Assembly: GCA_021789975.1 (NCBI GenBank)
Contig: JAJYIT010000013.1
Location: forward strand, 31,864 to 95,863
DNA from: Bacteroidota bacterium
Lineage (GTDB): Bacteria; Bacteroidota; Ignavibacteria; Kryptoniales; JAKASW01
DNA length: 64,000 bases
Reading direction: 5' to 3'
The notes below the pieces were generated by a model. That model ran no database searches and had not been told where the DNA came from. It worked only from the letters and a program-made list of their open reading frames with translations. The position numbers were made by a program, and so were the translations under genes. Below are positions 40,573 to 61,080 of this stretch, in pieces (position 1 is the first letter of the stretch; the number at the start of each line of letters is the position of its first letter).

Positions 40573-41006
40573 ATGAAACATAGCACCGTCTTTGATGCAA
40601 CCCGTGGCGCACAAATATGCAGCGCATGTTTGGGGCAGTTAGGCGAAAGCGCACGCATATTCGTATATTATAGCGGGAGATTCTCAATGCGCCCAAGCAT
40701 GTCCAGGAAGTATTGCTTTCTATACCGAGCAACGTTCTGGAAAGAGTTTAATTGACTGAGGAAATATTTTCGTTGCATGAGGCTTACCTTTCAGCCGAGA
40801 TAGTATCTCCACGATGGAAGGACGATGCGCTCCACGTTGCCGCAGCTACCGTCGCCCGCTCTGATGCGATTGTCTCATGGAATTTCCATCATATCGTTCG
40901 TCTTGACAAAATGCGTGCTTACAATCAAGTGAATTTGGCGAATGGCTACGGCATTTTGACAATCATTTCTCCCAAGGAGGTGAACTACGATGAGCCCGAG
41001 CAGTAA
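40573..41006 (+). pseudogene. Decayed PIN-domain (VapC-like) toxin gene
   Basis: The C-terminal 84 codons (40752-41006) carry DDALHVAAATVARSDAIVSWNFHHIV, a PIN-like C-terminal motif. The same frame continues upstream as REILNAPKHVQEVLLSIPSNVLERV but is cut by TAA 40749-40751 and TAG 40671-40673. A PIN-like N-terminus, MKHSTVFDAT, starts at ATG 40573 in another frame. This implies at least one frameshift and one nonsense codon. Confidence 0.45.
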
Positions 41007-41190
41007 GAAACATATCGACTCTATTGCGATAAAGCGTGATGCTCAGAATCGAAAATACGAGGAGACCAGGGGGTTGTCCCCCAAACAGGAAATTGAATAT
41101 TTCCGTGAAGCCGTGCGAAACAGTCAATTCAAACAATGGTGGGAGCAAGGGAATACTATCTTGGCAAGACGAGCTAGCAAAGCGTCATGA
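40990..41190 (+). CDS. Small 66-aa protein, possible cognate partner (antitoxin-like) of the decayed PIN gene
   Basis: Overlaps the PIN remnant by 17 nt. Charged helical sequence KKHIDSIAIKRDAQNRKYEETRGLSPKQEIEYFREAV. Confidence 0.35.
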   Translation: MSPSSKKHIDSIAIKRDAQNRKYEETRGLSPKQEIEYFREAVRNSQFKQWWEQGNTILARRASKAS

Positions 41191-42139: not shown

Positions 42140-45100
42140 ATGTCTGATAAAATAGAGATGCAGGAAACTCCGTTGGACCACTATGCGTCGACAGAATCGG
42201 GGCAGGAAAAGCTGGAGATCGAAATTGAGTATGATCAGTGCATAAACTACGCGATTCAGCAAAATGCTGTTCCAGTGGTGAAGAGAATCAAGCTATTGAA
42301 TGCGACCCCTTTACCGCTTCTCAATGTCCTAGTAAAGATTACAGGCGATCCGGCGTTCTGTGATCCATGGGAATTGAGAATTGCCGTCTTGGAACCAGAA
42401 CGAGAATCTCTGCTGAAGGATGTTGACATCAATCTCTCCGCAACTTTTCTCGCGGGGCTTCGAGAGAAGAGCACGGGTCAGATCAAAATTAACGTTTCGT
42501 CTGATGACCTTCCGTTGCGAACCGCTAATTATCCAATCGACCTCCTCGCGTATGATGAGTGGCCGGGAATTCGCACAATACCGGAGATCCTTGCAGCTTT
42601 CGTCATGCCTAATCACCCTTCTATAGAGCCAATCCTGAAGGATGCAGCATCGCTCCTCAAGACATGGACTGAGGATAGCTCACTGAGCGGATATCAGACC
42701 GGCAATCCAAAACGCGCATGGCTTTCAGTTGCAGCAATCTACACGGCACTTAGCAAGCTCGGCATTTCCTATATCAACCCTCCTGCAAGCTTTGAGAGAA
42801 GTGGTCAGAAGGTGCGGACACCGGATAGAATTCTGGAGACACGACTCGGAACATGTTTTGACTTATCTCTTCTATGTGTCTCATGTATTGAGGCGGCTGG
42901 TCTAAATCCGATTGTGGTCTTACACAATGGACACGCTTACCCCGGTGCCTGGTTGAAAAACGAAACCTTTTCTCCCGCGGCCATTGATGATATCCAAACC
43001 CTTCGTAAGAGGAGTGAACTCGGAGAAATTGTTTTTTTTGAATCTACTTCCCTCACGAGTGACATCCCGAGAGAATTCAACCAAGCGGTATTGGACGCTG
43101 CACCTAGATTGGAGATGGATGACGAATTCATATTAGGTATCGACATAAAGTCTGCGAGAAGAGAGCGCATACGTCCGATTCCGCTGCGTGCTCATGGAGT
43201 CGAGGCGTTTACACATCAAGAAGAGAAGCAAGATAACGGAGGCATCGACAGTGTACCCCAAGTTCCTCTATCAATCGTGCAGGAGGAAACTGCGAAAGAC
43301 AAGACCGCAATCTCCCCGCAATCAAGAGTGGACCAGTGGAAACGAAGACTCCTGGACCTTTCTCTGCGCAACCGGCTTCTTAACTTCAGAGACACTCAAA
43401 AGACGGTGCCTATCCTGTGCCCTGACCTGCCTGCTCTGGAGGATGCTCTTGCGGCCGGTGAGGAATTCAAGTTCGCTCCAGGGATAAAAGTCATGTCGGA
43501 AAGTGATCCGCGCAGCGCCGCTGTGCACCACACGCGTACCGGTGAAGATGCTCAGGAAGAGTTTCTGAAGGAGGAGATGGCAAGTAGAAGGCTGCATACG
43601 ACTCTCTCGGAAGCGGAGCAGAACAAACGCTTGCTTGAAACGTATCGCTCCGCTCGCACTGCTGAAGAAGAGGGTGGTGCAAACATATGTTACCTCGCGC
43701 TCGGGTTTCTCGAATGGACTCAACGAGACGCAGGGGACCAGGTCTACTCAGCACCCATACTTCTTTTGCCGGTTGAGCTGACGAGAAAATCGATTCAGCA
43801 AGGATTCCATCTTCAGGAGCACGACGACGAACCCCGTATCAATATCACGCTACTCCAAATGCTGGAAAAGGATTTCAATCTTCAGGTAACGGGCCTCGAC
43901 CCGCTTCCACGTGACCAATCCGGCATCGACGTGCAATCGGTACTGCAGACATTTCGCACTGCCGTCCGTGACATAAAAGGCTGGGAAGTAAAAAACGTGG
44001 TTCGCCTCGGTTTGTTTTCCTTCACCAAGTATCTCATGTGGAAGGACCTTGAAGATCGCACTGAGGATTTGATGAGGAATAGTGTGGTGGAGCATCTGAT
44101 CAAGAACCCGGAAACTCCGTATCCGTTCCAGGGGGAAAAGCCGGATGCTGACAGAATCGATGATGAGCTGCGACCGGCTAATACTTTTTGCCCACGGGAC
44201 GCGGACTCCTCCCAACTTGCATCAGTACTTGCCGCGTCAAGAGGTATTAGCTTTGTGATGGAAGGTCCTCCCGGAACTGGGAAGTCGCAGACGATAACAA
44301 ACATCATTGCACAATCTCTGGCTGAAGGCAAAACCGTTCTCTTCGTAGCCGAAAAGATGGCGGCACTGAACGTGGTTTACGATAGATTGCGCGGTGTCGG
44401 ATTGGCGCCCTACTGTCTGGAACTTCACTCCAGCAAAGCTAAGAAAACGGACGTGCTCCAGCAACTGGCAGCACGAGCATCTGCAGTTTCCAATACTGAC
44501 GTCGATGAGTGGGAACAGTTAGGAAGAAGTTTGGGATCGTTGCGTACAGAACTAAATCAGTACGCGGCACTCCTTCACAGAGTTTACCCGAACGGACTTA
44601 CCGCATTTAGTGTGACTTCGTCTCTTGTTGGAATGCGAGATGAACCTGTTGTCCCGATCAGCTGGCAGAGTGTCGATATACATACCCGGGCCGACCTTCA
44701 GAATCTAAAAGGCGCAGTTGACGAGCTTGCCACAACCGCACGTCCGTGTGGATCGATCGCCGATAATAGATGGTTCGGTTTTGAGCACACCGAGTGGAGC
44801 CCTGGCTGGGCACAAGAATTGGAATCGCAAGTAGATACATTGGGAAAGTGCATAATCAAACTTGAGGAATCCATTCGCGAACTAGCGCCTCGGTTTGGAA
44901 TCGAAGGAAGAGGGTTTACGTTCAGAAGCTTGAAGCGCATAGAAGCCTTGGGTGCTGTGATGCTTCGGTCTCCCGGTGTTTCCAAGCCAATGCTTGATAT
45001 TGGCGATTGGGAAGACTTCAGACACCGAGTAGCAGAAGTTGGCGTCGTCGGAAGGAAGAGGGATTCACTGCGGACAAAGTTGTTCTCCGAATACTCCACC

Positions 45101-48100
45101 GAAATCGCGAACGCCGATGTAAGTAATCTGAGAGATACTTGGATGAGCGCCAGTGAATCCTGGTGGGCGCTCAGATGGATCAGGCGCCACAAAGTTAAAA
45201 CGGCATTGAAAGCACTCCACAAGGTGCGAAAAGTGCCCGCCGATGAGACGATCGCTGGGATACTCTCAGACGTTGAAACTCTCCAAGAGCTGCATAGCCA
45301 TGTCGCGTCAGTAAGTGGATCCGTCGGAGGTCCGCTTGGCAGGTTCTGGCGGGGAGGAGATCCCGATTGGGAAGAAGTTGACAAAATGTGTGAGTGGGTG
45401 AATTCGTTCCGGGAAGGAGTCTATTCGGTAGCGGACGGTGACGCTCAGAAGTCATCCATCATGTGCCATCAGCTGTCTGAGACCGTTACTACTCTCAACG
45501 ATCAATTGAAGCTGGATGGTCAGATTGGGAATTCAATCATCTCGTTCACGCAGTCGCTTGCAGAGTTTGAGTCAGCGCGTGAAGCGTTGTCCAGGACAGG
45601 CGGCGTAAACGATGCGAAGGTTTGGGGGGACGGTGCCGCTGTTGACCTTATTTCGGTGAGCAAGAAACTGGTGGATCAATGGAAGCCCGCGGTTGGCTCA
45701 CTTCGCTACTGGTGCGCGTGGCAATCGGCACGGTCAAATGCAAAGAAGTTGGGCTTAGCCGCGATTGTAGATGCTATTGAATCGGGGAGTATCAGGACAG
45801 AAGGTCTGGAGCGAGTGTTCACCAAGAGTTACTATCTGTGGTGGCTCAATTCGCTTACCGATCAAGAACCTTTGCTACGCCAGTTTCTGCGCGAAGTACA
45901 CGAAAAGAAAATCGAGCGATTCCGGAACACTGATGCTGCATTCGTGACGAAAACAAAAGGTGCCGTTACAGCAAAACTATCTGAGGAACGGCCTGATCCG
46001 TCATCGACGCGTGCAAGCAGCACATCTGAAATGGGGGTGCTGACAAGGGAGCTTCGGAGGGTGAGACGCCTCATGCCGGTTCGCACACTTCTGTCAAAGA
46101 TTCCTAATTTACTTCCTCGTCTCAAACCGTGTCTCTTGATGAGTCCTCTATCTGTTTCTCAGTACCTTCAAGCCGGACGGCAGCCTTTCGACGTAGTAAT
46201 CTTCGATGAGGCCTCCCAGATACCGGTGTGGGATGCAGTTGGAGCAATAGCAAGGGGCAAGCAGGTAATCATTGCAGGTGACCCCAAACAGTTGCCCCCC
46301 ACAAATTTCTTTGTGAAGGCAGAAGAAGACGATGAGATCATTGAGGAGGATTTGAAGGTTGAAGACCTGGAGAGCGTTCTTGACGAATGCATGGGAGCTG
46401 GCCTGCCACCCATGCGTCTTAACTGGCATTACCGAAGCCGTCACGAGAGCCTCATCGCCTTTAGCAATTCCCAATATTACCAAAATTCACTTCAGACTTT
46501 TCCATCTGCAGTAACCAATGACAGCGCCGTTTCTTTCCGCCATGTTCCGAGCGGAGTGTACGATAAAGGGAAAACAAGAACTAACCGTGAAGAAGCGAGA
46601 GCCATAGTATCGGAGGTAATCGAGCGGCTAACCGATCCAACGACCTGCAACGAAACGATGGGAATCGTAACGTTCAATCTAGCTCAGCAGAGACTGATCG
46701 AAGATATGTTAGAGAGCGAAAGGTCGCTACATCCGGAGATCGAAAAATACTTTTCTCCAGAGGTTGAGGAGCCAGTGTTTGTGAAAAACTTGGAGAACGT
46801 CCAGGGTGATGAAAGAGACGTAATTTTCTTTTCGGTCTGTTATGGACGTGATCTTAGCGGAAAGGTATCTCTCAATTTTGGACCCATGAATAAAGACGGA
46901 GGTCAAAGGCGTCTGAACGTTGCGATCACCAGGGCCCGAAACGCTGTTCGAGTTTTCTCGTCAATAACCGGTGATGAAATTGATCTCCGCAGAACTCAAG
47001 CACGAGGTGTTGGCGATTTGAAGCTCTTCCTCGAATACGCTCAGCGAGGTCCCTCAATACTGGCTCCGTCCGTTTCATCGGAGGCCGGCGCAGAGTTCGG
47101 TTCGGTGTTTGAGCAGCAAGTCCATGATGCGCTGGCGGAACGGGGCTGGCAGTCGAACTTACAAGTCGGTTGTTCAGGTTTCCGTGTAGACCTCGGCATC
47201 ATCGACAAGCAGAACCCGGATCGGTATCTGGCAGGAATTCAATGCGACGGAGGAAACTACCACAGTGCGAAATCAGCTCGGGATCGGGACCGCCTTCGCC
47301 AAAGCGTGCTTCAAGGCCTTGGCTGGAAACTGATCCGCATCTGGTCCACCGATTGGTGGCTTGAACCGCAGCGAGAACTTGATCGGGTTGACGGGCTACT
47401 GCACGCAATAGAAGCTGGGCCTTCACAATGTGTAGAGAACGGGAATCAGAATCGAAAGGACCCGGATCCTGACTCCACTAAGATCATGGCTGCCCCTGCG
47501 GTCGGAAAACCTGAAACTGCAATGTCTCCTCACGGACGGCAAAATTCTGAGCCGACATACACTCACTATATAGCGTTCTCGAAGACCCCAAAGGATGGCA
47601 GTCAACTCAACTTCTACGACTCGTACCAGAACTCAGCCATTCGGGAAACTATAGTCAAAACTATTGCTTTGGAGGGGCCAATAAGTCTCGATCTGCTCGT
47701 TCACCGAGTAGGGATGCTATGGGGATTTTCCCGCGCTGGGAATGGCGTCCGCGGACGGGTCGTAAGCCTTATTCTAGAGGGGACAGTGAACCTGACACGA
47801 CACAACGGCATGATCTGGTATTGGCCGTTGAACCTGGGTCCCGAGCGTTACACCGATTTTAGAGTTTCCGTCCCCGGCGAGTCTGACGCTCGTGAGATTG
47901 CAGACATTGCACCAGAGGAAATCGGTAACGCCGCTTTGAGCATCCTGAAGCAACACATTAGCATAGAGCGAGATGAACTAGCCAGAGAGGTATATCAGCT
48001 TTTCGGATACAGCCGTCTTAGTGTGGCAGGCAAAGCTCACGCTGATTATGGTATTCATTTTCTTATCCTGAGAGGTTTTGCGAGGATGGATGGCAACATG

Positions 48101-48118
48101 GTTGTTCTAGAGCAATAG
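42140..48118 (+). CDS. Giant 1992-aa multidomain protein: transglutaminase-like N-terminal region, DUF4011, Upf1-like SF1 helicase (AAA_11/AAA_12), DUF559/MTES_1575-type PD-(D/E)xK nuclease-like domain, DUF3320
   Basis: A single uninterrupted ORF. Motifs: GTCFD...GHAYPGAW; WKRRLLDLSLRNRLLNF and ICYLALGFLEW..APILLLPVEL (DUF4011); Walker A GPPGTGKS; VVIFDEASQ; IIAGDPKQLPP; HYRSRHESLI; GIVTFN; VQGDERDVIFFS; RRLNVAITRAR; FRVDLGII..YLAGIQCDGGNYHSAKSARDRDRLRQSVLQGLGWKLIRIWSTDWW; and a DUF3320-like tail. Confidence 0.9.
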   Translation: MSDKIEMQETPLDHYASTESGQEKLEIEIEYDQCINYAIQQNAVPVVKRIKLLNATPLPLLNVLVKITGDPAFCDPWELRIAVLEPERESLLKDVDINLSATFLAGLREKSTGQIKINVSSDDLPLRTANYPIDLLAYDEWPGIRTIPEILAAFVMPNHPSIEPILKDAASLLKTWTEDSSLSGYQTGNPKRAWLSVAAIYTALSKLGISYINPPASFERSGQKVRTPDRILETRLGTCFDLSLLCVSCIEAAGLNPIVVLHNGHAYPGAWLKNETFSPAAIDDIQTLRKRSELGEIVFFESTSLTSDIPREFNQAVLDAAPRLEMDDEFILGIDIKSARRERIRPIPLRAHGVEAFTHQEEKQDNGGIDSVPQVPLSIVQEETAKDKTAISPQSRVDQWKRRLLDLSLRNRLLNFRDTQKTVPILCPDLPALEDALAAGEEFKFAPGIKVMSESDPRSAAVHHTRTGEDAQEEFLKEEMASRRLHTTLSEAEQNKRLLETYRSARTAEEEGGANICYLALGFLEWTQRDAGDQVYSAPILLLPVELTRKSIQQGFHLQEHDDEPRINITLLQMLEKDFNLQVTGLDPLPRDQSGIDVQSVLQTFRTAVRDIKGWEVKNVVRLGLFSFTKYLMWKDLEDRTEDLMRNSVVEHLIKNPETPYPFQGEKPDADRIDDELRPANTFCPRDADSSQLASVLAASRGISFVMEGPPGTGKSQTITNIIAQSLAEGKTVLFVAEKMAALNVVYDRLRGVGLAPYCLELHSSKAKKTDVLQQLAARASAVSNTDVDEWEQLGRSLGSLRTELNQYAALLHRVYPNGLTAFSVTSSLVGMRDEPVVPISWQSVDIHTRADLQNLKGAVDELATTARPCGSIADNRWFGFEHTEWSPGWAQELESQVDTLGKCIIKLEESIRELAPRFGIEGRGFTFRSLKRIEALGAVMLRSPGVSKPMLDIGDWEDFRHRVAEVGVVGRKRDSLRTKLFSEYSTEIANADVSNLRDTWMSASESWWALRWIRRHKVKTALKALHKVRKVPADETIAGILSDVETLQELHSHVASVSGSVGGPLGRFWRGGDPDWEEVDKMCEWVNSFREGVYSVADGDAQKSSIMCHQLSETVTTLNDQLKLDGQIGNSIISFTQSLAEFESAREALSRTGGVNDAKVWGDGAAVDLISVSKKLVDQWKPAVGSLRYWCAWQSARSNAKKLGLAAIVDAIESGSIRTEGLERVFTKSYYLWWLNSLTDQEPLLRQFLREVHEKKIERFRNTDAAFVTKTKGAVTAKLSEERPDPSSTRASSTSEMGVLTRELRRVRRLMPVRTLLSKIPNLLPRLKPCLLMSPLSVSQYLQAGRQPFDVVIFDEASQIPVWDAVGAIARGKQVIIAGDPKQLPPTNFFVKAEEDDEIIEEDLKVEDLESVLDECMGAGLPPMRLNWHYRSRHESLIAFSNSQYYQNSLQTFPSAVTNDSAVSFRHVPSGVYDKGKTRTNREEARAIVSEVIERLTDPTTCNETMGIVTFNLAQQRLIEDMLESERSLHPEIEKYFSPEVEEPVFVKNLENVQGDERDVIFFSVCYGRDLSGKVSLNFGPMNKDGGQRRLNVAITRARNAVRVFSSITGDEIDLRRTQARGVGDLKLFLEYAQRGPSILAPSVSSEAGAEFGSVFEQQVHDALAERGWQSNLQVGCSGFRVDLGIIDKQNPDRYLAGIQCDGGNYHSAKSARDRDRLRQSVLQGLGWKLIRIWSTDWWLEPQRELDRVDGLLHAIEAGPSQCVENGNQNRKDPDPDSTKIMAAPAVGKPETAMSPHGRQNSEPTYTHYIAFSKTPKDGSQLNFYDSYQNSAIRETIVKTIALEGPISLDLLVHRVGMLWGFSRAGNGVRGRVVSLILEGTVNLTRHNGMIWYWPLNLGPERYTDFRVSVPGESDAREIADIAPEEIGNAALSILKQHISIERDELAREVYQLFGYSRLSVAGKAHADYGIHFLILRGFARMDGNMVVLEQ
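42812..43039 (+). other. Domain: transglutaminase-like cysteine-protease-fold core (aa ~225-300)
   Basis: RLGTCFDLSLLCVSCIEAAGLNPIVVLHNGHAYPGAWL. Cys239 (TGT 42854-42856) and His265 are spaced as in the transglutaminase-core Cys-His pair, with Asp283/284 as a candidate third residue. Confidence 0.45.
43322..44059 (+). other. Domain: DUF4011-like region (aa ~395-640)
   Basis: DQWKRRLLDLSLRNRLLNFRDTQKTVPI and ANICYLALGFLEWTQ...YSAPILLLPVELTR. Confidence 0.6.
44192..46969 (+). other. Domain: SF1 (Upf1/DNA2-like) helicase core with ~640-aa insertion between Walker A and motif II
   Basis: Walker A at 44264-44287 (K715). DEAS begins at 46205 (D1356). Motifs III-VI lie downstream. Confidence 0.85.
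47093..47365 (+). other. Domain: DUF559/REase_MTES_1575-like restriction-endonuclease fold
   Basis: FEQQVHDAL..FRVD(1684)LGII..IQ(1701)CDGGNYHS..RDRDRLRQ..GWKLIRIWSTDWW. Confidence 0.65.
47597..48109 (+). other. Domain: DUF3320-like C-terminal region
   Basis: IRETIVKTIALEGPISLDLLVHRVGMLWGFSRAGNGVRGRV and ELAREVYQLFGYSRLS. Confidence 0.5.
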
Positions 48119-48396
48119 GGAATCGTAAGATGCCTATTCTCGGATTCAGTATCGTTGCTCGGCTAATTCAGAGTCGGAAGGGGAGTGAGCTTGTACCACC
48201 ACTCTGTACCTTCGGAACTGCGAGAGATTACTCACGAGCTTTACGGTTTCGTCGCTTCCGCCGGCAGGTTCGGTTCCGCGCGACTTTCATGGCGACCGAC
48301 CGCGACGGCTACTACCAGGATTACGTCGGGGCAGGTTTTTTGTGTCGCTGGGCTGTGTGCAATGCTCGCTAGATTAGATTTTAGAGGCTGACTCGG

Positions 48397-48879
48397 ATGA
48401 GATTAAGATCAATCTCTACGATACTTCATGAAGTCTTTGACAGGGCTCCACATTGGCTTGCGCACCGAAAGAGCTGGTGGAACTTGCTCCTCATCCCCTT
48501 GGGATTAGGAGGTGTCGGTGTCATCACTTCTGGGCTCTTTCATTTTATGTGGTGGGTGCATCTGTTGTTTTACCCTGTCCATGCCGGCCATCAGGGCGAA
48601 TTTTGGAATTCAGGGATTTCACTTAGTGCTTTCGTCCCCAGTTTATTATTCGTTGTCCCCCCTTTTTTTGCTTCAATGCCTCTTGCAGCCCTTATGAGCA
48701 ATGGTATCCTTTGGTTGGTGCCAACGATTAGAGAGGTATTCGAAAAAGAGGCCAAAGCTTTACCGCGAACTTCTTTTGGGGGAACGATGGAAAATGTTCT
48801 CAATACAACTGTGGTACTGGTGCCGATTTGTATGCTGCTCAGTTTTCTTGGCGCAGTGAGTTTGAGCAGCTTGAAATAG
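48397..48879 (+). CDS. Hypothetical integral membrane protein (about 4 TM)
   Basis: 160 aa with four hydrophobic segments. No recognised family. Confidence 0.55.
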   Translation: MRLRSISTILHEVFDRAPHWLAHRKSWWNLLLIPLGLGGVGVITSGLFHFMWWVHLLFYPVHAGHQGEFWNSGISLSAFVPSLLFVVPPFFASMPLAALMSNGILWLVPTIREVFEKEAKALPRTSFGGTMENVLNTTVVLVPICMLLSFLGAVSLSSLK

Positions 48880-49061
48880 GCCTCGATCGCGCTGCCCATA
48901 ACACGGCAAATAACGATATTGGAAGAAGTCATGACTAATACAATCCTCATTGAATACTTCTGTTCGGTCAAAGGAGATTGTCATGCTCACGAGAGTTTTG
49001 TGGCGTTTGCAGAGACGTTATACGAAACCACGCGAACTCAATTTTGAGAAAGGAGACAAGA

Positions 49062-49703
49062 ATGAGGTTGACCAAGTACATGGTGGTGCTTTATTGTGTC
49101 ACTTTGATTTCGGCCACACTGGCGTTCGCTCAAAAATCGCAAGACACGTTACGGGCTACCGTGGGCAACCCGCAACTTCAGAAGGAACTTCTTGACATGG
49201 AGGTCAACGACCAAAATGTCGAACACCTCTTCGTAGACACGATGTCCCAACATCCCAACGATACTCTTGGCATTATCGCTTTTATTAAGAAGATGGATTC
49301 CGTATTCAATCGCAATACAGCGGCTCTAAAAAAAATACTCCAACGCTACGGCTGGCCGGGCATCGATTTGGTTGGTCGAGAGGGCGCTGAGGCAGCATTC
49401 CTTATTGTCCAACATTCAACTGATACTCTCTTCCAAAGAGCTTGTTTGCCACTGCTCAGAACTGCATGCGAACATGGTCAAGCATCCGGCGATAATCTCG
49501 CTTTGCTCACCGACCGAGTCCTCGTGCGTGACGGAAGACCTCAACTTTATGGCACTCAGACGAAGATTGTTAATGGGAAGATAGTCCTGGAGACAATTGC
49601 CGACAGCGCAGACGTGGACGCTCGCCGTGCAAAACTCGGTCTAATGCCTCTATCTAAATACCTGGAGTTGTTGCGAGAGACAATTCACCTTAAGGACAAA
49701 TAA
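49062..49703 (+). CDS. Secreted DUF6624-like protein
   Basis: AGGAG RBS and signal peptide MRLTKYMVVLYCVTLISATLAFAQ. YGWPGIDLVGREGAEAAFLIVQHS...LLTDRVLVRDGRPQLYGTQ...RRAKLGLMPLSKY resembles DUF6624 (from memory). Confidence 0.55.
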   Translation: MRLTKYMVVLYCVTLISATLAFAQKSQDTLRATVGNPQLQKELLDMEVNDQNVEHLFVDTMSQHPNDTLGIIAFIKKMDSVFNRNTAALKKILQRYGWPGIDLVGREGAEAAFLIVQHSTDTLFQRACLPLLRTACEHGQASGDNLALLTDRVLVRDGRPQLYGTQTKIVNGKIVLETIADSADVDARRAKLGLMPLSKYLELLRETIHLKDK

Positions 49704-49973
49704 TATGTGGCTACCCCGATACTCCACGTGCCGTCCGCCAACATCCAAGAACAAGACGTTTCCCGACATAGCACATGTCGAGACAGGCTCAATTGGAAGC
49801 TCGCTTCATTGCCTTTGCCCGCGGTCTCGATGCTTCTTCGGTCACCGGCCGCTCTTCACATTCTTCGATAGATGTTTCGCAACTTTTGTAGCGGGCGTCG
49901 GCGCCGACTTCTTTTTGACGGACATTAATTGGAATTGTGTTTGTGCAGAACAATCGCAGAAACGAGAAATGCA

Positions 49974-51266
49974 ATGCTGAAGAATCTTCTGATTGGAATT
50001 CTAGTCCTCTCAAGTTCCGTGCTACTATATGCTCAGCAGCCGTCTTTTGCGGACACCTTAGCCACATATTTTAATGAAGTCAAAACAGCCACGACGGAAA
50101 ACAAAAATCTATGGAACTACGATACCTATGCCCCAATTTTGTTGGTACAGCCAGATACGCGGGAAGTCTTTGCGAACAGCCCCGACAGTGCAGGTTCACT
50201 GAAAAAAGAGGGAACGATATTTACCGGAAAACTGCCCGACTCAATCACAATTGCGAACACTTCGATTCGTTGGAGTGGCGTCACCTGGGCGATGGTGATG
50301 CTTCCCCTTCCCGAAAATAAATACGAGAGGCTGGACCTTCTAACTCATGAACTCTTTCACGTGGCGCAGCCTCATTTGGGTTTCACACCTTACAATCCCG
50401 AAAACAACCAGCTCGACCAAAAAGACGGAAGAGTATATTTGAGGCTCGAATTGGAGGCTCTGAAAGCTGCTCTGCTTACGGATTCGCATGCCGAGATGGG
50501 AAAGCATATAGCCGACGCCCTGACCTTTCGAATGTACCGCTATCAGATCTATCCCATTGCGGACTCCACCGAAAATCTACTTGAATTAAACGAAGGGCTT
50601 GCTGAATTCACCGGAGTCATGATGAGCGGAAGAAACAGACAGCAAATGCGCGATCACTTTGTAGAGAGCATGAATGAGTTTTTGAAGAATCCGACTTTTG
50701 TGAGATCCTTTGCCTACCAGACAATCCCGATGTATGGTTACCTGCTTCATGAAATAGAACCCGGCTGGAACAAGGACATTACAGATAGGACAAACCTTAC
50801 GGCATATTTCCTGCGGGCTTTTCACATTAAACTACCGCACGACTTGAAAAGCGCAGCGGCAAAGATATCCGGCGAGTATAATGGTGCAAGAATTATTGCT
50901 GAAGAAACTGAGCGGGCAGCAAGAATCGACAAGCTCAAAGCAGAATACAGACGGCTATTTTTCGGGCTGCCGCACCTTACTATCCATCTCCACAAGATGG
51001 GTATTGCCTTTGACCCGCGCAATATTATGCCTCTCGAAAACAAAGGAACCGTTTGCCCGTATCTTAGGGTAACGGACGATTGGGGAATGTTGATCTCGAC
51101 AAAAGCCGCACTTATGAGTCCGACATGGAACGAGGTAACGGTCACTGCTCCGACTCAGATAGGGAAAGAAAAAGTCGTCGGTGATGGTTGGACTATAGAC
51201 TTGAAGGAAGGCTATGTCGTGCAGAAAGACACAGCAACGAATAGTTATATATTGAAAAAGAAATAG
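49974..51266 (+). CDS. Secreted putative gluzincin-type metallopeptidase (HExxH)
   Basis: Signal peptide MLKNLLIGILVLSSSVLLYAQ. HELFH at 50346-50360 and a downstream LNEGLAEFTG, a possible third-ligand Glu motif. Confidence 0.55.
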   Translation: MLKNLLIGILVLSSSVLLYAQQPSFADTLATYFNEVKTATTENKNLWNYDTYAPILLVQPDTREVFANSPDSAGSLKKEGTIFTGKLPDSITIANTSIRWSGVTWAMVMLPLPENKYERLDLLTHELFHVAQPHLGFTPYNPENNQLDQKDGRVYLRLELEALKAALLTDSHAEMGKHIADALTFRMYRYQIYPIADSTENLLELNEGLAEFTGVMMSGRNRQQMRDHFVESMNEFLKNPTFVRSFAYQTIPMYGYLLHEIEPGWNKDITDRTNLTAYFLRAFHIKLPHDLKSAAAKISGEYNGARIIAEETERAARIDKLKAEYRRLFFGLPHLTIHLHKMGIAFDPRNIMPLENKGTVCPYLRVTDDWGMLISTKAALMSPTWNEVTVTAPTQIGKEKVVGDGWTIDLKEGYVVQKDTATNSYILKKK

Positions 51267-51462
51267 GTCAATAATGTGGAGGAAACAAGCGCAACTTCGT
51301 CTAAGGAGCGGGCGCGGCGATTCTATATGTGGAGATCGCCCGACGTCGCTGCCGCTTTGTCGGATCCCATCTTTCGTTTCCTTCGGCCCCGTTCTCGACG
51401 GTCACGACTTCGATAGCGAACGGCCGGGCGCGGTTCGTGTGTAACTTTCTAAACAAGGAGAT

Positions 51463-51999
51463 GTGATGTTCAGAACAGATAATAAGAAAGACATGCTGAC
51501 AGTTTTTCTGTCTGGCGGTGTCACTGTTCTTTTCCTGATACCGCTGCTATATCCCATTCCTTTATGGGCCAAACTCGTTTCCGTCCTTTTCGCGGTTTAC
51601 GTGGTCTACCTGACGTTGAAACTGGCGTGGTGTCTTTCTGAACCGGCCGACGCGTCGGTCTCTCTGAAGCCCCGGGCAATTGAGGCTGAACAGAAGTGCC
51701 TCTGTTCAGTATGCGGGAAAGACCCGCAAGGCAGCCGGACCCTGGAAGTCGGATACCGCGGCAAATCCTTGGCGGCTAATTACCTGGGAGTCCTTATCGG
51801 TGGATACATGGAAGATGCCATCCACTTGTCCGTTCCGATTTGCGAACACTGCGCGAGGCGGTATGCGGCTCTTTCTAAACTCCAGCTCCTCCCTCTGCTC
51901 GGTCTCGATAGAAGCTTCAGGGTTTTGAAGAGAAAACCTGGATACCTAAGGGGCCTGGAGCATCCGTTCGATCGCTCAAATCTCAGAACGGTTCACTGA
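51463..51999 (+). CDS. Membrane-anchored zinc-ribbon protein
   Basis: Two N-terminal TM helices, then CSVCGK...CEHCARRY cysteine pairs. GTG 51463 or ATG 51466 start after AAGGAG. Confidence 0.5.
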   Translation: MMFRTDNKKDMLTVFLSGGVTVLFLIPLLYPIPLWAKLVSVLFAVYVVYLTLKLAWCLSEPADASVSLKPRAIEAEQKCLCSVCGKDPQGSRTLEVGYRGKSLAANYLGVLIGGYMEDAIHLSVPICEHCARRYAALSKLQLLPLLGLDRSFRVLKRKPGYLRGLEHPFDRSNLRTVH

Positions 52000-52154
52000 C
52001 GTGAGTATCCGATCATGGCGTGTTGCTCGGGAGAGATTTGCGGCCTCGGGGCTCACAAATGCAGGAAATCGAATACAGTTGCAGGATTAGAACTTCCCAT
52101 GACAAAAGAAAAACTCTACGTGCTCTGGATTTTCATTCTTCTTAGAACGTCCCG

Positions 52155-52406
52155 ATGGCTCTGAATCTTCTTCCACCGAACGGAGCAATTGGATTCAGGA
52201 CCGCCAGGATATTATCCAGTCCCGTAGTATGGAGTGAGGCAAATACTTTTTCAGGGTGGGTGTTCATTGCGACTGCGATGATCGGAATCGGGATTACATA
52301 CTTTAAACCGGACATTGCAAAGAAATACGGCACGCTTCTATTTTTTAGCATGCTTGCACTCGCACTCACAATCTCGTTCATCTATGTGAATTTCCTTCCC
52401 GGATGA
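52155..52406 (+). CDS. SdpI/YhfL-family small membrane protein (immunity-protein family)
   Basis: LLPPNGAIGFRTARILSSPVVWSEANTFSGW followed by two TM helices. A short ORF from ATG 52099 (MTKEKLYVLWIFILL..) in another frame may be a displaced N-terminal TM segment. Confidence 0.5.
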   Translation: MALNLLPPNGAIGFRTARILSSPVVWSEANTFSGWVFIATAMIGIGITYFKPDIAKKYGTLLFFSMLALALTISFIYVNFLPG

Positions 52407-52545
52407 ACCCGTATATGCGAGTATCAAGCCAACTATGGTGCGAAGGATCAAACTTGGGTAGAGTAACTTCCACGGATGCGCTTGAAGACGCGGTTCGCGG
52501 ATTACTTTCGATTGCCACAAAGAAGAAATGGAGATATAGTAGGAC

Positions 52546-54096
52546 ATGAAGAACGGCTTGTTAACGAAATGGCTTCGTGCAGCTATCGTGGTTCTGGTTT
52601 GCGCTTTCTCATCGGTCAACTCGTTCGGACAGTCGCAGCGGGTTGCCGATCTGACAGCACTGATCAAGCAACATGCAGATTGGAATCCGGGAAATTTCAT
52701 TCTGAACAAACTGGAGACAAATCGGATTGTCATGGTGGGCATTGAACGCTACGGCGATCCGATGTATTCAAGAGTGATAGTGAATGCGCTGAACGATTGG
52801 GTAACTCAATGGGGTCAGAATGGGCCGCAAGAGAAGGCAGGGAAGCTGCCGTCTAAGCTCTTTCTCATACTCGAGATGGACTCTGTGCAGGCAGACGGTG
52901 TTAAACAATATTTCAGAACCGGTGATCCGGTACAGACGATCACACCTTTCAGTTTCATAGGGGACCAGTTTACGACCGGCAAATTTGAGTTCTGTGATGA
53001 CCTGCGTCTCATCAGGCAGCGTGTCGATTCGCTCAACGAACATCGTCCCTCTAACGATCAAATACTTTTCGACATAGTCGGCCCGGAAGAGATAATCACT
53101 CCCGCTACCTGGACAACGGCAAAGAGAGATTCCTTATACGTCCATGGACGTGACGAATATTCTTCCTCTAGAATTGAGAAGCTTCTTGATGAATCGCCCA
53201 CCGCGAAAGCTCTGGTTTTTTACGGACAGCAGCATCTTTACACCGAAAAGATGGAAAAGTTTCAGGGCAAACCGCAGTCGATGGGGTACTATCTCGCCCA
53301 TTACCTTGTGCAATACTTCGGATCCAAAGGTGGTGTCTATACCTGTGAGCAAATCGACGTCAATGCGGATCGCGCAAGGATGGACGAATCAATCAAAGCG
53401 ATAGGTAAGACGTTTGCCATCGACGGCTCAGTCTTCGACGGGGCGGCAGTTGGAACCAATGCATACATTCCCTGGCTGGACGGTGCGATCTTTTATTTTG
53501 TCCCACCGCGATATACGAGGCAGCTTTCGATGCTCTATTCACAAAGACTGGTTGACTACGTGCTGAAAAATATCGATTCTTACAGGAACGTGTCGGAAGA
53601 ATATAACAGGTGGGTCGTGTTATCGTGGATCTACTATCTCTCAAACGCGGCTGGCGTACCATTTCAAGGAATTAATTACAGAAACCAGGTTGTCATTGAT
53701 AGCGCCGTCGCCGCCTGGAAGGAATGGGGAAGATCGACGAAGCTGGACATTGTCGGAAAGATTACCAGCCTTGAATATTTCAAGAAGTATGTCGATATGA
53801 TGAAAAGCTCAGATCCGCGCGCAACGATGGAATATGAACAACATCTCTCAACATTGGTTGGATTCAGAGACTGGTTCCCCATGGGGACTTCGCCGCAGGT
53901 GCGTGCCGACAGTATGTGGGCGCATATTCAAAGATACCGGAAGTCTGTCATAACGGAGAACCTGGTTTATCTTCTTTGGGTCGCAACGAAGTCCGAAAAA
54001 GAGAAGGCGATGGCTGTTCTTGAGAAGGAAACAGGAATGAACTTCAAGACTGCCGGTGAATGGACGAAGTGGTGGGAGAGTCAGAAGGCGAAGTAA
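52546..54096 (+). CDS. Hypothetical secreted protein
   Basis: 516 aa with signal peptide MKNGLLTKWLRAAIVVLVCAFSSVNSFGQ. No recognised family. Confidence 0.7.
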   Translation: MKNGLLTKWLRAAIVVLVCAFSSVNSFGQSQRVADLTALIKQHADWNPGNFILNKLETNRIVMVGIERYGDPMYSRVIVNALNDWVTQWGQNGPQEKAGKLPSKLFLILEMDSVQADGVKQYFRTGDPVQTITPFSFIGDQFTTGKFEFCDDLRLIRQRVDSLNEHRPSNDQILFDIVGPEEIITPATWTTAKRDSLYVHGRDEYSSSRIEKLLDESPTAKALVFYGQQHLYTEKMEKFQGKPQSMGYYLAHYLVQYFGSKGGVYTCEQIDVNADRARMDESIKAIGKTFAIDGSVFDGAAVGTNAYIPWLDGAIFYFVPPRYTRQLSMLYSQRLVDYVLKNIDSYRNVSEEYNRWVVLSWIYYLSNAAGVPFQGINYRNQVVIDSAVAAWKEWGRSTKLDIVGKITSLEYFKKYVDMMKSSDPRATMEYEQHLSTLVGFRDWFPMGTSPQVRADSMWAHIQRYRKSVITENLVYLLWVATKSEKEKAMAVLEKETGMNFKTAGEWTKWWESQKAK

Positions 54097-54101
54097 AACA
54101 A

Positions 54102-54560
54102 ATGACTGTCTTGAAATATCGCCTTACTTGGTTGCTTATTCCAATAGGTGGTTACACAGGCTTATGGCTCCTCGGTAGCATAGCTTTCCTTGTCTACTTT
54201 AGAATATTTAATATCTCAATGGAATTGAAGTACGTCGATATGATCCGAAAAATACCGGCACCTCTCGCGATTTTCACAGTTCCGGTGTGCAGTTTCATTT
54301 CGTTCTTTACAACGAGTAAGATAGTACTCGCAAAATTTGAGAGGCCAGTCGGCGAAAAGTTAGCTCTTCGCGTCGCTCTTCTCTCTCTTCTCTTCACGAT
54401 TTGTCTGGACATAGTAATCACCGTCATCATCCAACGGATGAACATATTGCTATTTCCCGTTAACGTGATGTACCTGCTTGCCTGGGGCAGCATCGTTCCG
54501 GGCGTCCTCCTGGCAGGAAATCGAAAGTCATTTCAGCGAAAGGTCCACCATGGGAAATGA
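54102..54560 (+). CDS. Hypothetical integral membrane protein
   Basis: ATG 54102 lies 6 nt after the previous stop. About 4 TM segments. Overlaps the next gene by 11 nt. Confidence 0.5.
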   Translation: MTVLKYRLTWLLIPIGGYTGLWLLGSIAFLVYFRIFNISMELKYVDMIRKIPAPLAIFTVPVCSFISFFTTSKIVLAKFERPVGEKLALRVALLSLLFTICLDIVITVIIQRMNILLFPVNVMYLLAWGSIVPGVLLAGNRKSFQRKVHHGK

Positions 54561-55491
54561 AATATCTCCGCTTCCGGAACGTCCTTCGTTAATCCACCGG
54601 ATATTTATCGGCAAGCAAGGCATACGAGCCGGGTGGAGTATCGGGATATTCGTAATCATTTCCGCGGTGCTCTCATTCGCTGCACTGTTTTGTGTACGGT
54701 TCATAATTCAAGGCATGCATCCCACGGTTAACGGAGTGCTCCCGCCGGCTCCCTTAGCCATCAGAGAATTCGGATTGTTCCTGGCGCTTTTGGCGGCTTC
54801 GATCATCATGACCCGTATCGAGCACAAGCCGATTATCTCATACGGCTTCGAAGGTGAGCACCGTCTACGATATTTCATTTACGGATTCCTCTTCGGCTTC
54901 ATCGCACTCTCTGCACTTGTTGGGGCTATGATGCTCTTGGGGTTCATCCGGTTCGATGGAGTGCATCTCTACGGTTGGGGAATTCTCAGGTATGCCGTCG
55001 TTTGGGGAGGTGTGTTCGTGATAGTAGGTTTGTACGAGGAATATCTGTTGAGGGGATATCTACAGGCGACTCTGTCGCGCGGAATAGGGGTTTGGTGGAG
55101 TGCCATCATACTTTCGATTGCCTTCGGAAGCCTTCATCTCTTCAACCCGGGAGAATCGCGCATTGGGATCATCTCAGTGGTGGAGGTCGGTCTGGTATTA
55201 TGCCTGAGTCTATGGTACCTGAAGACGCTCTGGTGGGCGATCGGGTTTCACGTGGCCTGGGACTGGGCAGAGTCGTACTTCTGGGGTACCGCCGACAGCG
55301 GGCTGGTGATGAAGGGACATCTGTTCGACGTTCAGCCTCACGGGAACATTCTATGGAGCGGCGGAGCGACAGGACCTGAAGGGAGTTTGCTGGTGATAGT
55401 GCTCTTGTTAATTGCAGCCGCGCTGATGTGGATTACCTGGCACAAAAAAACAGCTGCGACGGATTTGTCAGGAGGAACCACTGTACCATGA
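54550..55491 (+). CDS. CPBP-family intramembrane glutamic endopeptidase (CAAX protease / bacteriocin-processing, Abi family)
   Basis: Multi-TM protein with motifs EEYLLRGYLQ, FGSLHLFN and GFHVAWDW, characteristic of the CPBP family. Confidence 0.8.
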   Translation: MGNEISPLPERPSLIHRIFIGKQGIRAGWSIGIFVIISAVLSFAALFCVRFIIQGMHPTVNGVLPPAPLAIREFGLFLALLAASIIMTRIEHKPIISYGFEGEHRLRYFIYGFLFGFIALSALVGAMMLLGFIRFDGVHLYGWGILRYAVVWGGVFVIVGLYEEYLLRGYLQATLSRGIGVWWSAIILSIAFGSLHLFNPGESRIGIISVVEVGLVLCLSLWYLKTLWWAIGFHVAWDWAESYFWGTADSGLVMKGHLFDVQPHGNILWSGGATGPEGSLLVIVLLLIAAALMWITWHKKTAATDLSGGTTVP

Positions 55492-55571
55492 TCAATTCGT
55501 TGTTCTATTAAAAGACCGATTCTCGGAAGAGAACTCCAAATGAACAGAATTAACTAACGGGAGATAATACA

Positions 55572-55865
55572 ATGCCGGCACTTTTTCTCCATACCTTTGC
55601 ACTGATCATTACCTTGTTAATCTTCGGCTATGTCGGCTACAAAGTATCGAAGAAGCTGAAGAGTGTGCTCTCTTTTGTCGCGTGGATATTGATGATCGCG
55701 ATAGCACTATATGCGGGAAACGCTTTGAACATCGGCATCCTTGTCGGCATCTTCCAATTCAAGATTTACATATCGACTTCGCTTACCGCACTCGGCTTAG
55801 GTATAATCGTCGGACTTGCGATGCAGGAAATACGCCGAAGGGCAAATGCCGGCGCAAAAGTATAG
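55572..55865 (+). CDS. Small integral membrane protein (3 TM)
   Basis: 97 aa with three hydrophobic helices. No recognised family. Confidence 0.45.
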   Translation: MPALFLHTFALIITLLIFGYVGYKVSKKLKSVLSFVAWILMIAIALYAGNALNIGILVGIFQFKIYISTSLTALGLGIIVGLAMQEIRRRANAGAKV

Positions 55866-56060: not shown

Positions 56061-58736
56061 TCATCTTACTTCCACTATCTCTCTCTTCACATTCCACCCG
56101 CTGATCGTGACAGCGGCATCGGTTAGATCGCTCGGATTCCCATAGTCGATATAAACCCTTTTCTCTCCGCCAGGCAGAACCGAGACATAGTTGTCGCTGT
56201 AGAAAACGGGAAGAATCCGTTTGTTAGTCACCGTGTCCAGAAGGGAGATGCGATTGAAGAACGCAAGCGGGCCGCCTGCCGGATTCTTTATCACAACCTC
56301 GATTCTGTCCGGTGCAACCTGCTCGGCGGTAGCCTCAATATTCGCTTGCGACATATGCTGGAGTCCTGAATAGTTGCCCGTCGAATCGGGGAACCAATAC
56401 AGGTTATCACTTATAACGGAGTCCTGATTTCTCAGGAGCCTGAGGTCGAGGAACCCGCCTTCTGCCTTGAAGAAGCGGTCGAGCACTCCCGCCGTCGGAA
56501 TCAGATTTTGTACGGTGGTCGGGCTGATATCCATGAACCACTGGGTAAGAAGTGAATCTTTTCCTCCTATTCCGATCACTCTGAGCTGGATCATAAGATC
56601 ATGGTACGACCTGAAAGTCTGGTTGACCACAGTCACCATTCCATCAACAGGATTGTACATGACGTGGAGCAGCTCGTCGGCGGCGCGCAGTCCGTAGAGA
56701 CATCCGTTCGGGTCGAGGTAGTAATCGTACATCTGCCCGCGAAGCGCGGTCCAGGGGTTCTGCGTTTTCCAGATGATGACTCCCGTGTACCAGTCCCACA
56801 TGTGTGCGAGATGGCCCTCGATCAGTCCACGGTACTGGTTGTAATTCACCAACTGTGCTGTTTTTGCCCACTTCTTCAAACTCGTCGGAATGCCGTACTT
56901 GTCTATGTGGTCGCCATATCCCTGGTACTCGTGATATCTCCATACAGAGTCGACCTGGCTCCAAACGGAATCGGGGATGACGAGATCTTTTGGCGGAATG
57001 AACCTTTCAAGCGATCGGTAATCTCCAATTCCAACCGAACCGACTTCCGTGTTGAAAGGGAAAGAGCGGTGTTTCCAGAAATATTCGATCGGCTGGATCT
57101 GGTAGGGCCCGTCGCCATTGCCGCCGATAAAATTGTACGACATGCTATCGACGTTCGAGTACTCGAAGAAATATCTCGTGCTGTCGAGGTCCGGCATGAG
57201 CGAGTCCTGCATCGCGTGAAGGATGTCTATCGGAGGAGTGATCTCGTTTCCACCTAAGTAGAAGGCGAGTGACGGATAATTTCTGAGCATCCTGACCTGG
57301 TCGGCCACAGATTCGAGGAAGAGCTTGTGATTGTCCGGATACTTGCGCCGGATCCACTGGTTTTGTTTTTTCATCGGATCGAACCACTTTCCGTTGCAGT
57401 CACCGGTGATCCAGAATTCCTGCATGACCAGCAGCCCGTATTTGTCGCACTCTCTGTAGAAATCCGGCCTTTCAGTAATTCCACCTCCCCAAACGCGGAG
57501 GAGGTTCAGTCCCATTTCATGTTGAAAACGTATCTCGGCATTGTATCTCTCTTTTGAAAACCGAAGCATCTCGTCCGAATCGATCCAGTCCCCACCTCTG
57601 ATGAAAATCTTCTGACCGTTGACGAAAACCATCCGGCTCTTTGTGTGGTCATCCCACTTTGTCTCGATCTGACGAATGCCGGTGGTGATTTCCTTGTCAT
57701 CGAGAATTTTTCCGCCATCCGTGACGAATTGGAAATCGACATTGTAGAGCGACTGCTGACCGTATCCGTTTGGCCACCAGAGTCTTGGATTGTTCATAAC
57801 GTAATCGGGGAGCTGGACTTTTTCGTTAGACCGGGGTCCGATCTCGACTTTACGTCTCACTATCGTACTGTCAATGATGTATTGCACCGTACCATTTAGT
57901 GTGTTGTCTGTGGGGTTATCGACATTGACACTTGCTTTTATGATCGCTGGTGCCTGCGGTTCATCCGGATATCTCTTTCCAGTTACTATTGTGACGAGGT
58001 GAGGATATTTGAGATAGACCGTGTTCGTTCTGACGATCTCGACTCTGTCCCATATCCCGGTGTTGCGGTCAGGGATGGGCCTGATCCAATCCCAGCCGGC
58101 AGCATACTGGTTCGTGACGCTGTGAGCAATCGTACCATCACCGCCTTGCCCGCCGTTGCCGTTCCCGGGAGGGTTCGGAGGATATACGATTACCGCAAGC
58201 CGGTTATTGCCGTTCTTTGAAAGGAATGAAGTGATGTTGTAAGTCTGACGGAGGAACATTCCGTAGTGAGTCTTTTTGTTCAGCTTGTGACCGTTAAGAT
58301 AAAGATCGCATCCGTAGTTCACTCCTCTCAGTTTGAGCCACACCTGATCTTTTGCCACCGGAGGCGTCTCATGAAAATCCTTAATGAACCAGTAGGTGTA
58401 GTAGTCCACGCCGGTGTCAAATATGTCCGGGATTTTTTTGTTGTTCATGCCGTAGAAAGGGTCCGGCACCAGTTTATCGTTAAGCATAGTTGTCAATACA
58501 GTCCCCGGAACTGTGGCAGGGAGCCAGCCGGTCAGTGAATAACCCGGCGTGGAGAGTTCTTCGCCAGTGGCCTGCACTTTCTTGATGTTCTGGCACACCC
58601 ACCCGGAGTCAAGCAGGAATCGAGTGCGTGGACGCGTCTGTTCAGCTTCCTGCAGTGTGATATAAGATGGTACACAGCCGGATAGGGCTGAAGCAATGAT
58701 CATGACGATTATGACTGCCGGTATTCTCTTGTACAT
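56061..58736 (-). CDS. Glycoside hydrolase family 2 lipoprotein (beta-mannosidase / exo-beta-D-glucosaminidase-like)
   Basis: ATG at 58736 gives the lipobox signal MYKRIPAVIIVMIIASALSGC. WLPATVPGTVLTTMLNDKLVPDPFYGMNN is a GH2 N-terminal sugar-binding pattern. YLGGNE and WITGD motifs. Confidence 0.8.
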   Translation of the reverse strand: MYKRIPAVIIVMIIASALSGCVPSYITLQEAEQTRPRTRFLLDSGWVCQNIKKVQATGEELSTPGYSLTGWLPATVPGTVLTTMLNDKLVPDPFYGMNNKKIPDIFDTGVDYYTYWFIKDFHETPPVAKDQVWLKLRGVNYGCDLYLNGHKLNKKTHYGMFLRQTYNITSFLSKNGNNRLAVIVYPPNPPGNGNGGQGGDGTIAHSVTNQYAAGWDWIRPIPDRNTGIWDRVEIVRTNTVYLKYPHLVTIVTGKRYPDEPQAPAIIKASVNVDNPTDNTLNGTVQYIIDSTIVRRKVEIGPRSNEKVQLPDYVMNNPRLWWPNGYGQQSLYNVDFQFVTDGGKILDDKEITTGIRQIETKWDDHTKSRMVFVNGQKIFIRGGDWIDSDEMLRFSKERYNAEIRFQHEMGLNLLRVWGGGITERPDFYRECDKYGLLVMQEFWITGDCNGKWFDPMKKQNQWIRRKYPDNHKLFLESVADQVRMLRNYPSLAFYLGGNEITPPIDILHAMQDSLMPDLDSTRYFFEYSNVDSMSYNFIGGNGDGPYQIQPIEYFWKHRSFPFNTEVGSVGIGDYRSLERFIPPKDLVIPDSVWSQVDSVWRYHEYQGYGDHIDKYGIPTSLKKWAKTAQLVNYNQYRGLIEGHLAHMWDWYTGVIIWKTQNPWTALRGQMYDYYLDPNGCLYGLRAADELLHVMYNPVDGMVTVVNQTFRSYHDLMIQLRVIGIGGKDSLLTQWFMDISPTTVQNLIPTAGVLDRFFKAEGGFLDLRLLRNQDSVISDNLYWFPDSTGNYSGLQHMSQANIEATAEQVAPDRIEVVIKNPAGGPLAFFNRISLLDTVTNKRILPVFYSDNYVSVLPGGEKRVYIDYGNPSDLTDAAVTISGWNVKREIVEVR

Positions 58737-61070: not shown

Positions 61071-61080
61071 GGAACACGAA

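Follow-up and report, generated by a model that had tools for sequence, protein, structure and literature searches.

The stretch of DNA analyzed here, referred to as the window, comprises 64,000 nucleotides from an uncultured Bacteroidota bacterium of the Kryptoniales (GenBank assembly GCA_021789975.1, contig JAJYIT010000013.1, positions 31,864 to 95,863), and its most conspicuous element is a giant gene at 42140..48118 (+). The gene is a single unbroken open reading frame (ORF) of 5979 nucleotides with an ATG start, encoding 1992 amino acids (aa), and the next longest ORFs of the window encode 984 and 916 aa. A first-pass annotation made from the sequence alone had described it as uninterrupted and as two to ten times longer than the other genes, and both descriptions hold. 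From N- to C-terminus, the protein combines a beta-sandwich, a transglutaminase-like domain, a DUF4011 domain, a Upf1-like superfamily 1 (SF1) helicase with a large insertion, a Vsr-like endonuclease and a DUF3320 region. All motifs quoted in the first-pass annotation are present in the 1992-aa protein, and a Pfam scan recovered all five families it had led us to expect (DUF4011, AAA_11, AAA_12, MTES_1575 and DUF3320). The gene and its parts are laid out as follows, with confidence values for predicted structures given as predicted local distance difference test (pLDDT) scores.

42140..48118, + strand: ProA-family gene, 1992 aa plus stop codon (ORF, NCBIfam NF058533, PADLOC PDC-S37)
42212..42544, + strand: predicted beta-sandwich (Ig-like) domain, aa 25-135 (all-beta AlphaFold2 model with pLDDT about 90; Foldseek)
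42581..43162, + strand: predicted transglutaminase-like / papain-like domain, aa 148-341 (AlphaFold2, Foldseek and residue conservation)
42854-42856, 42932-42934 and 43040-43042, + strand: putative triad Cys239, His265 and Glu301, respectively (conservation)
43187..43324, + strand: low-complexity disordered linker, aa 350-395 (pLDDT below 50)
43346..44179, + strand: DUF4011 domain, aa 403-680, Pfam core 403-575 (PF13195, 170 bits)
44207..44629, + strand: first part of the RecA1 domain, with Walker A motif GPPGTGKS at aa 709-716 (Pfam AAA_11/AAA_30/AAA_19)
44630..46039, + strand: Trp-rich insertion of about 470 aa separating motifs Ia and II, aa 831-1300 (lower conservation)
46040..47074, + strand: rest of the Upf1-like core, from DEAS (aa 1356-1359) to VAITRAR (aa 1594-1600) (Pfam AAA_11/AAA_12)
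47108..47389, + strand: Vsr-like / DUF559-type restriction-endonuclease-fold domain MTES_1575, aa 1657-1750 (PF18741)
47537..48115, + strand: C-terminal region with DUF3320, aa 1800-1992 (Pfam PF11784 at aa 1825-1871)

The family assignment follows from a curated profile. The protein matches the NCBIfam equivalog NF058533.1, 'anti-phage protein ProA', with 2195.4 bits against a cutoff of 1500, and the alignment runs end to end, from residues 36-1959 to positions 1-1903 of the 1903-position profile, taking in the N-terminal domain, DUF4011, the helicase, the nuclease and the C-terminal region. Identity to most ProA-family members lies at around 43-47%, with the closest relative at 69%. A second match, to the PADLOC single-gene phage defence candidate PDC-S37 (E = 0, 1363.9 bits, PADLOC scores being given here without a curated cutoff), aligns residues 394-1969 to positions 7-1527 of 1550, that is, to nearly the whole profile. 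Unlike the window protein, the PDC-S37 profile begins at DUF4011 and lacks the module of approximately 390 aa formed by the beta-sandwich and the transglutaminase-like domain, thereby corresponding to the forms of the family that do without this module (11-14 of 80 loci). On profile evidence, the gene is hence an intact member of an already catalogued family and no new kind of system. The first-pass reading of a single-protein helicase-nuclease defence module agrees with this curated, above-threshold and full-length assignment, but the novelty that it presumed does not survive, given that the family is already present in curated databases as anti-phage protein ProA.

The N-terminal module is the part of the protein for which profile searches are silent, with no Pfam match for residues 1-400, transglutaminase models included. 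An AlphaFold2 model of the region, built on 23 sequences (pLDDT 82), places a beta-sandwich at residues 25-135 and an alpha/beta domain at 148-341, followed by a disordered linker of low conservation (0.41 in the 351-400 block). Foldseek matched the sandwich to UNC119/PDE6D-type sandwiches and to the N-terminal sandwich of transglutaminases, and the recurring top matches in the PDB were TG3, factor XIII, TG2, protein 4.2 and PNGase, the transglutaminase and PNGase matches being weak (E about 3e-4, TM-score 0.2 over about 115-120 columns). All 120 homologs compared share Cys239 and His265, and at position 301 they carry an acidic residue without exception (Glu in 66, Asp in 54); at the species level, the Cys and the His are kept in 64-65 of the 74 homologs that carry the domain and lost in about nine very divergent ones. 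A predicted transglutaminase-like fold with a Cys-His-Asp/Glu triad is supported by the model and by these residues, and the same N-terminal domain was named a transglutaminase in an earlier survey (Anantharaman et al., 2013; PMC3710099). The Cys/His core that the first-pass annotation had read in this region is therefore backed by the AlphaFold2 model, the invariant residues and the Foldseek comparison that it had proposed, which returned matches of the transglutaminase type, although weak ones, whereas Pfam finds none.

Searched alone against 1.84 billion cluster representatives, the N-terminal domain matches 1078 clusters at E <= 1e-30. It does not behave as a promiscuous module: nearly all of the best 150 matches carry it at the protein N-terminus, and most of these 150 proteins are of ProA length, the shorter ones looking like fragments. 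About one in seven loci lack the domain and still keep the helicase-nuclease core, and a separate gene encoding it was sought within 10 kb in these loci and rejected. Because it can be missing without being encoded separately nearby, the N-terminal domain is best described as an accessory module of the helicase-nuclease core. The DUF4011 domain that follows was correctly identified in the first-pass annotation, with Pfam placing it at 403-575 and the quoted motifs in place (LLDLSLRNRLLNF at aa 404-416 and ICYLALGFLEW at aa 516-526). An AlphaFold2 model of residues 393-692 reaches a pLDDT of 83, and Foldseek found no similar solved structure for it (best E 0.18).

The helicase is the most conserved region of the protein, with conservation peaking at 0.93 in residues 1551-1600. 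All six motifs on which the first-pass call of a complete Upf1/DNA2-like SF1 helicase had been based were located, at 709-716 (GPPGTGKS), 1356-1359 (DEAS), 1380-1387 (GDPKQLPP), 1431-1438 (YRSRHESL), 1555-1560 (QGDERD) and 1594-1600 (VAITRAR). Residues 709-719 do not vary in homologs, and K715 (the Walker A lysine), DE1356-1357 of motif II, R1432, QGDERD and R1598/R1600 are invariant in the 120 homologs compared; the arginines of motifs IV and VI count among the conserved catalytic residues. Pfam AAA_11 matches in two stretches, the best at 1341-1388, with AAA_30/AAA_19 covering the Walker A stretch (approximately 694-750) and AAA_12 lying at 1412-1607. Among solved structures, sequence similarity is restricted to the Upf1-like helicases Sen1, Upf1/NAM7 and IGHMBP2: phmmer searches of the PDB align Sen1, Upf1 and NAM7 to residues 1347-1606 (E 1e-9 to 1e-8) and IGHMBP2 to residues 676-750. 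The motifs and these similarities together are those of a predicted Upf1-like SF1B helicase. The insertion at 831-1300 has no Pfam match and a conservation of 0.46-0.58, punctuated by invariant Trp residues.

The nuclease call of the first-pass annotation, a DUF559/MTES_1575-type fold, is upheld by PF18741 at 1657-1750, with 115 bits against a gathering score of 38.2. Three acidic residues, D1684, D1703 and D1715, do not vary among 120 homologs and are conserved in 78-84 of 85 distant ones, and the set formed by D1684, D1703, R1714 and D1715 is near-invariant even among distant homologs. The DUF3320-like tail was likewise recovered by Pfam, at 1825-1871; DUF3320 overlaps the winged helix-turn-helix (wHTH) and has been described in terms of winged-helix DNA-binding modules (Anantharaman et al., 2013; PMC3710099).

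The closest named relative outside the family is Hhe, a listed defence system whose NCBIfam profile (NF042953.1) bears the title 'DUF4011 domain-containing anti-phage protein Hhe'. Hhe is a system of Gao et al. 2020. Hhe and the window protein each join DUF4011 to an SF1 helicase and a Vsr-like endonuclease in one large polypeptide. The window protein scores 865.8 bits against the NF042953.1 cutoff of 2000, in three stretches of which the best spans 1105-1763, and 574 bits against the PADLOC Hhe model. The similarity is partial and concentrated at residues of approximately 1100-1760, so that neither the N-terminal module nor the helicase insertion nor the DUF3320 region at the C-terminus is covered. 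By these alignments, the window protein is a relative of Hhe and not a member of it. With Mokosh, Nhi and Hna it has in common the coupling of a Upf1-like, COG1112-type SF1 helicase to a nuclease in anti-phage defence, but its nuclease, unlike theirs, is Vsr-like and C-terminal. Similarity to Mokosh MkoA/MkoC is local and confined to the helicase core (85-88 bits in PADLOC), a domain scan detected no PLD family in the protein or in its neighbours, confirming the absence of the Mokosh nuclease that had been noticed in the first-pass annotation, and no PADLOC match to the Nhi and Hna models was obtained. To our knowledge, Mokosh, Nhi and Hna have neither DUF4011 nor the transglutaminase-like module. 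A literature search on ProA (combined with anti-phage, Hhe, helicase/nuclease and Gabija) and on PDC-S37 found no relevant paper. An architecture of transglutaminase, SF1 helicase, Vsr-family restriction endonuclease and wHTH (DUF3320) was described in 2013 (Anantharaman et al., 2013; PMC3710099), and with the family named as anti-phage and Hhe listed as a defence system, the first-pass statement that the DUF4011/DUF3320 architecture has no defined function needs to be amended. MTES_1575-type proteins share this architecture, and the nuclease domain of the window protein matches the Pfam family of that name; MTES_1575 itself also bears a HEPN RNase domain, which was looked for in the window protein and discarded, no HEPN family being detected by Pfam at E <= 0.1.

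The exact same protein is encoded on contigs of four other assemblies, including the metagenome-assembled genome GCA_027342745.1. These four independent contigs run colinear with the window over the whole ProA gene at 99.65-100% identity, and full-length colinear homologs occur in many phyla; the ORF is therefore no assembly chimera, the artefact that the first-pass annotation had named as fatal to its reading. Scans for Rfam families, tRNAs, promoters and terminators, and repeats around the gene revealed nothing of note.

Relatives of the window protein are numerous and broadly distributed. More than 2291 proteins match it at E <= 1e-10, and relatives are encoded in no fewer than 596 species-representative genomes, which span the Proteobacteria, Verrucomicrobia, Planctomycetes, Bacteroidota, Firmicutes, Actinobacteria and one Methanosarcina. 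Copies that span 80% or more of the protein were found on at least 70 plasmids and almost never in phage records. Full-length ProA-like genes were seen on a 45.8-kb plasmid of Bacteroides finegoldii (NZ_OY725931.1; about 36% identity) and on MT836269.1, an 11.4-kb human-faecal contig labelled 'Bacteriophage sp.'. An all-versus-all comparison of 997 flanking ORFs from 64 species loci identified no conserved partner gene: the commonest flanking family occurs in nine of the 64 loci, at varying distance, and at most three loci share a family in the position immediately next to the gene. Annotation of called genes with Pfam in eight homolog loci likewise revealed no conserved neighbour, the 133 nearest neighbours of homologs fall into 132 different Pfam families, and neighbours already differ in relatives at 66% and 57% identity. 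Some loci adjoin serine recombinases, integrases, transposases, nSTAND, HNH plus NERD, ParE or SMC-like genes, and others plain metabolic genes. Because neighbours vary, no partner recurs in 64 loci and copies reside on plasmids, the distribution fits a mobile, stand-alone defence gene. Syntenic core homologs with conserved neighbours had been named in the first-pass annotation as the outcome that would speak against defence, and the homologs turned out to be non-syntenic, without a partner and often plasmid-borne.

Two homolog loci deserve mention in their own right. In one (L007:10001-15918), a ProA of 1895 aa is followed by a 77-aa ORF matching the ProA C-terminal end, probably due to a frameshift near the 3' end, and this ProA gene is part of an element that also encodes serine recombinases, an integrase and N6/N4 methyltransferases. 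In the 66%-identical relative (L093:127-2088), an NTP_transf_3 / radical-SAM protein lies directly upstream; a radical SAM gene also adjoins the core DUF4011 gene of Pseudomonas aeruginosa (PMC10250203), a proximity that may be coincidence, no such family recurring in the 64-locus comparison.

The giant ORF is thus very probably an intact, stand-alone and horizontally mobile anti-phage (or, more broadly, anti-invader) helicase-nuclease of the ProA family, related to Hhe. In a plausible mechanism, the Upf1-like motor would load onto invader nucleic acid that is single-stranded or branched and translocate with ATP. Translocation would bring in or license the Vsr-like endonuclease at the C-terminus, which would depend on Mg, for nicking or cutting DNA, with the DUF3320 winged-helix modules helping to hold the DNA. 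The transglutaminase-like domain and DUF4011 would act in sensing and gating, keeping the nuclease off host DNA until infection. It is conceivable, if rather doubtful, that the transglutaminase-like domain is itself catalytic, acting as a protease, deamidase or cross-linker and serving as infection sensor or switch, for instance by processing ProA or a phage protein to release the helicase-nuclease. If true, a catalytic transglutaminase-like domain together with DUF4011 would amount to a way of gating a helicase-nuclease immune protein that has not been described so far.

Target and outcome could also differ from those of phage-specific immunity. The protein might serve mainly in competition between mobile elements, by excluding plasmids or acting against them, or else as a toxin of abortive infection that, once triggered, degrades host and invader DNA alike, a minority possibility that nevertheless draws on the 70 plasmid-borne copies, small Bacteroides and Pseudomonas plasmids among them, and on the copies found inside integrative elements. 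Abortive infection is the reported mode of action of related single-protein helicase-nucleases such as Hna. The name given to the family by NCBIfam is, by contrast, anti-phage, and the toxin remnant that neighbours the gene in the window (see below) has no relation to the loci of ProA homologs. Selective destruction of invader DNA and abortive infection would look alike at this level, with nothing in the sequence separating the two modes.

Several considerations weigh against a defence role as such. The anti-phage phenotype attributed to the protein derives from the NCBIfam name and the relationship to Hhe, and we infer the substrate, polarity and trigger of the enzyme, as well as the roles of its transglutaminase-like and DUF4011 domains. 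In the roughly 6 kb to each side of the gene, PADLOC and NCBIfam recognise no other defence gene, and base composition around the gene shows no anomaly in the window. The window therefore shows no defence island, and the defence-island setting advanced in the first-pass annotation is not borne out, the PADLOC scan of the neighbours that it recommended having found no other defence gene. Many homolog loci are surrounded by housekeeping genes, and the core genome of P. aeruginosa includes, in all isolates, a DUF4011 gene that flanks a defence hotspot (PMC10250203). Enrichment next to defence genes, which the first-pass annotation had proposed to look for in homologs, stands in so far as strong PADLOC matches (PycC, PDC-S06, HEC-01A, reverse transcriptases and MTase_II) are commoner among the 133 nearest neighbours than among 133 ORFs located 8-10 kb away in the same loci, but it is suggestive only, involving small counts of roughly 7-8 versus 2 proteins; the corresponding tally of matched PADLOC families, 103 versus 13, is inflated on the near side by redundant reverse transcriptase models.

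The housekeeping surroundings of many loci, the window's want of defence neighbours and the core status of the P. aeruginosa gene would also suit a helicase-nuclease of DNA repair or genome maintenance, engaged for example in mismatch or fork processing with a Vsr-type endonuclease, and the Joint Genome Institute (JGI) labels many homologs 'very-short-patch-repair endonuclease'. Such a role is nonetheless improbable for a protein that passes the curated ProA anti-phage equivalog, whose family is patchily distributed, lacks synteny even at 57-66% identity, travels on plasmids and integrative elements and shows no conserved repair partners in the neighbourhood comparison.

Compared with other ProA members, the window copy is set apart by its host, an uncultured bacterium of the FCB group bearing a type IX secretion system (T9SS), and by a few unusual substitutions in the nuclease domain. 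It deviates at six of 43 highly conserved nuclease columns, where the median of the others is zero and only one of 119 deviates more. The six residues (V1656, F1681, V1683, D1694, Q1701 and G1705) occupy positions that are more than 93% conserved in close homologs, and relatives at 57-69% identity show 0-1 such substitutions. In distant branches of the Bacteroidota and Firmicutes, several of the six are normal residues. Among 85 distant homologs, position 1701 is L, M, I or V in 26 and position 1681 is F in 36. Although the six deviations, E1701Q and Y1681F included, could be taken as the mark of a decaying or nuclease-dead copy, this is very improbable, since distant members vary at both positions and are hydrophobic at 1701, the acidic residues D1684, D1703 and D1715 are kept together with R1714, all helicase motifs are intact, and the ORF is unbroken and identical in four assemblies.

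Upstream of the ProA gene, 1.6 kb of small ORFs separate it from a thioredoxin-like gene ending at 40550. They include the decayed PIN toxin reported in the first-pass annotation, which proves to be an N-terminally truncated PIN_3 remnant:

40752..41006, + strand: truncated PIN_3-family toxin remnant, upstream context and not part of ProA (homologs)

The 84-aa remnant corresponds to the C-terminal ~60% of a PIN_3-family protein, the N-terminal half being missing and the frame upstream closed by stop codons. The fragment itself has no Pfam match; its homologs are 120-144 aa long and up to 85% identical, and two of them carry PF13470. A 66-aa ORF (40990-41190) overlaps the end of the remnant and could be a former partner of the PIN protein. 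In the four independent assemblies with an identical ProA, contigs start within this toxin-remnant region, at 40673, 41232, 41259 and 41259, suggesting that strains vary at this junction or that the genome holds another copy; the segment 40673-41259 has no repeat elsewhere within the window. Further upstream, between 24013 and 33943, lie four neighbouring proteins that carry C-terminal sorting domains of the T9SS, three of which also have BNR/sortilin repeats, with a DUF3160 protein among them.

The ORF just downstream of the ProA gene (48130-48372) was considered as a partner and rejected, the corresponding small ORFs of other loci being unrelated; one of these is the frameshifted C-terminus of that locus's own ProA. 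The region 48397-55865 encodes a series of small multi-pass membrane proteins (160 aa, 178 aa, an SdpI-like protein of 83 aa, 166 aa, a CPBP/Rce1-like protein of 337 aa, and 97 aa), between which signal-peptide proteins (DUF6624, 445 aa and 516 aa) are interspersed. No defence or NCBIfam match was obtained for these membrane and secreted proteins, so that the orphan membrane or immunity-type genes described here in the first-pass annotation are present, as SdpI-like, CPBP/Rce1-like and small multi-transmembrane ORFs, but match no defence model. They are followed, at 56061-63510, by genes for GH2, a glutaminase-A-like protein and GH92.

Taken together, the defence reading of the giant gene is supported and the claim of novelty is not. 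The single-gene defence family to which the gene belongs is very widespread but mechanistically uncharacterised, and the window contributes an intact ProA gene whose host is an uncultured bacterium with a T9SS. For bench work on this family, it provides useful starting points in an N-terminal beta-sandwich and transglutaminase-like domain whose putative triad is almost universally kept, in the optional nature of this module across the wider family, and in a DUF4011 domain that can be modelled confidently and has no Foldseek match among solved structures.

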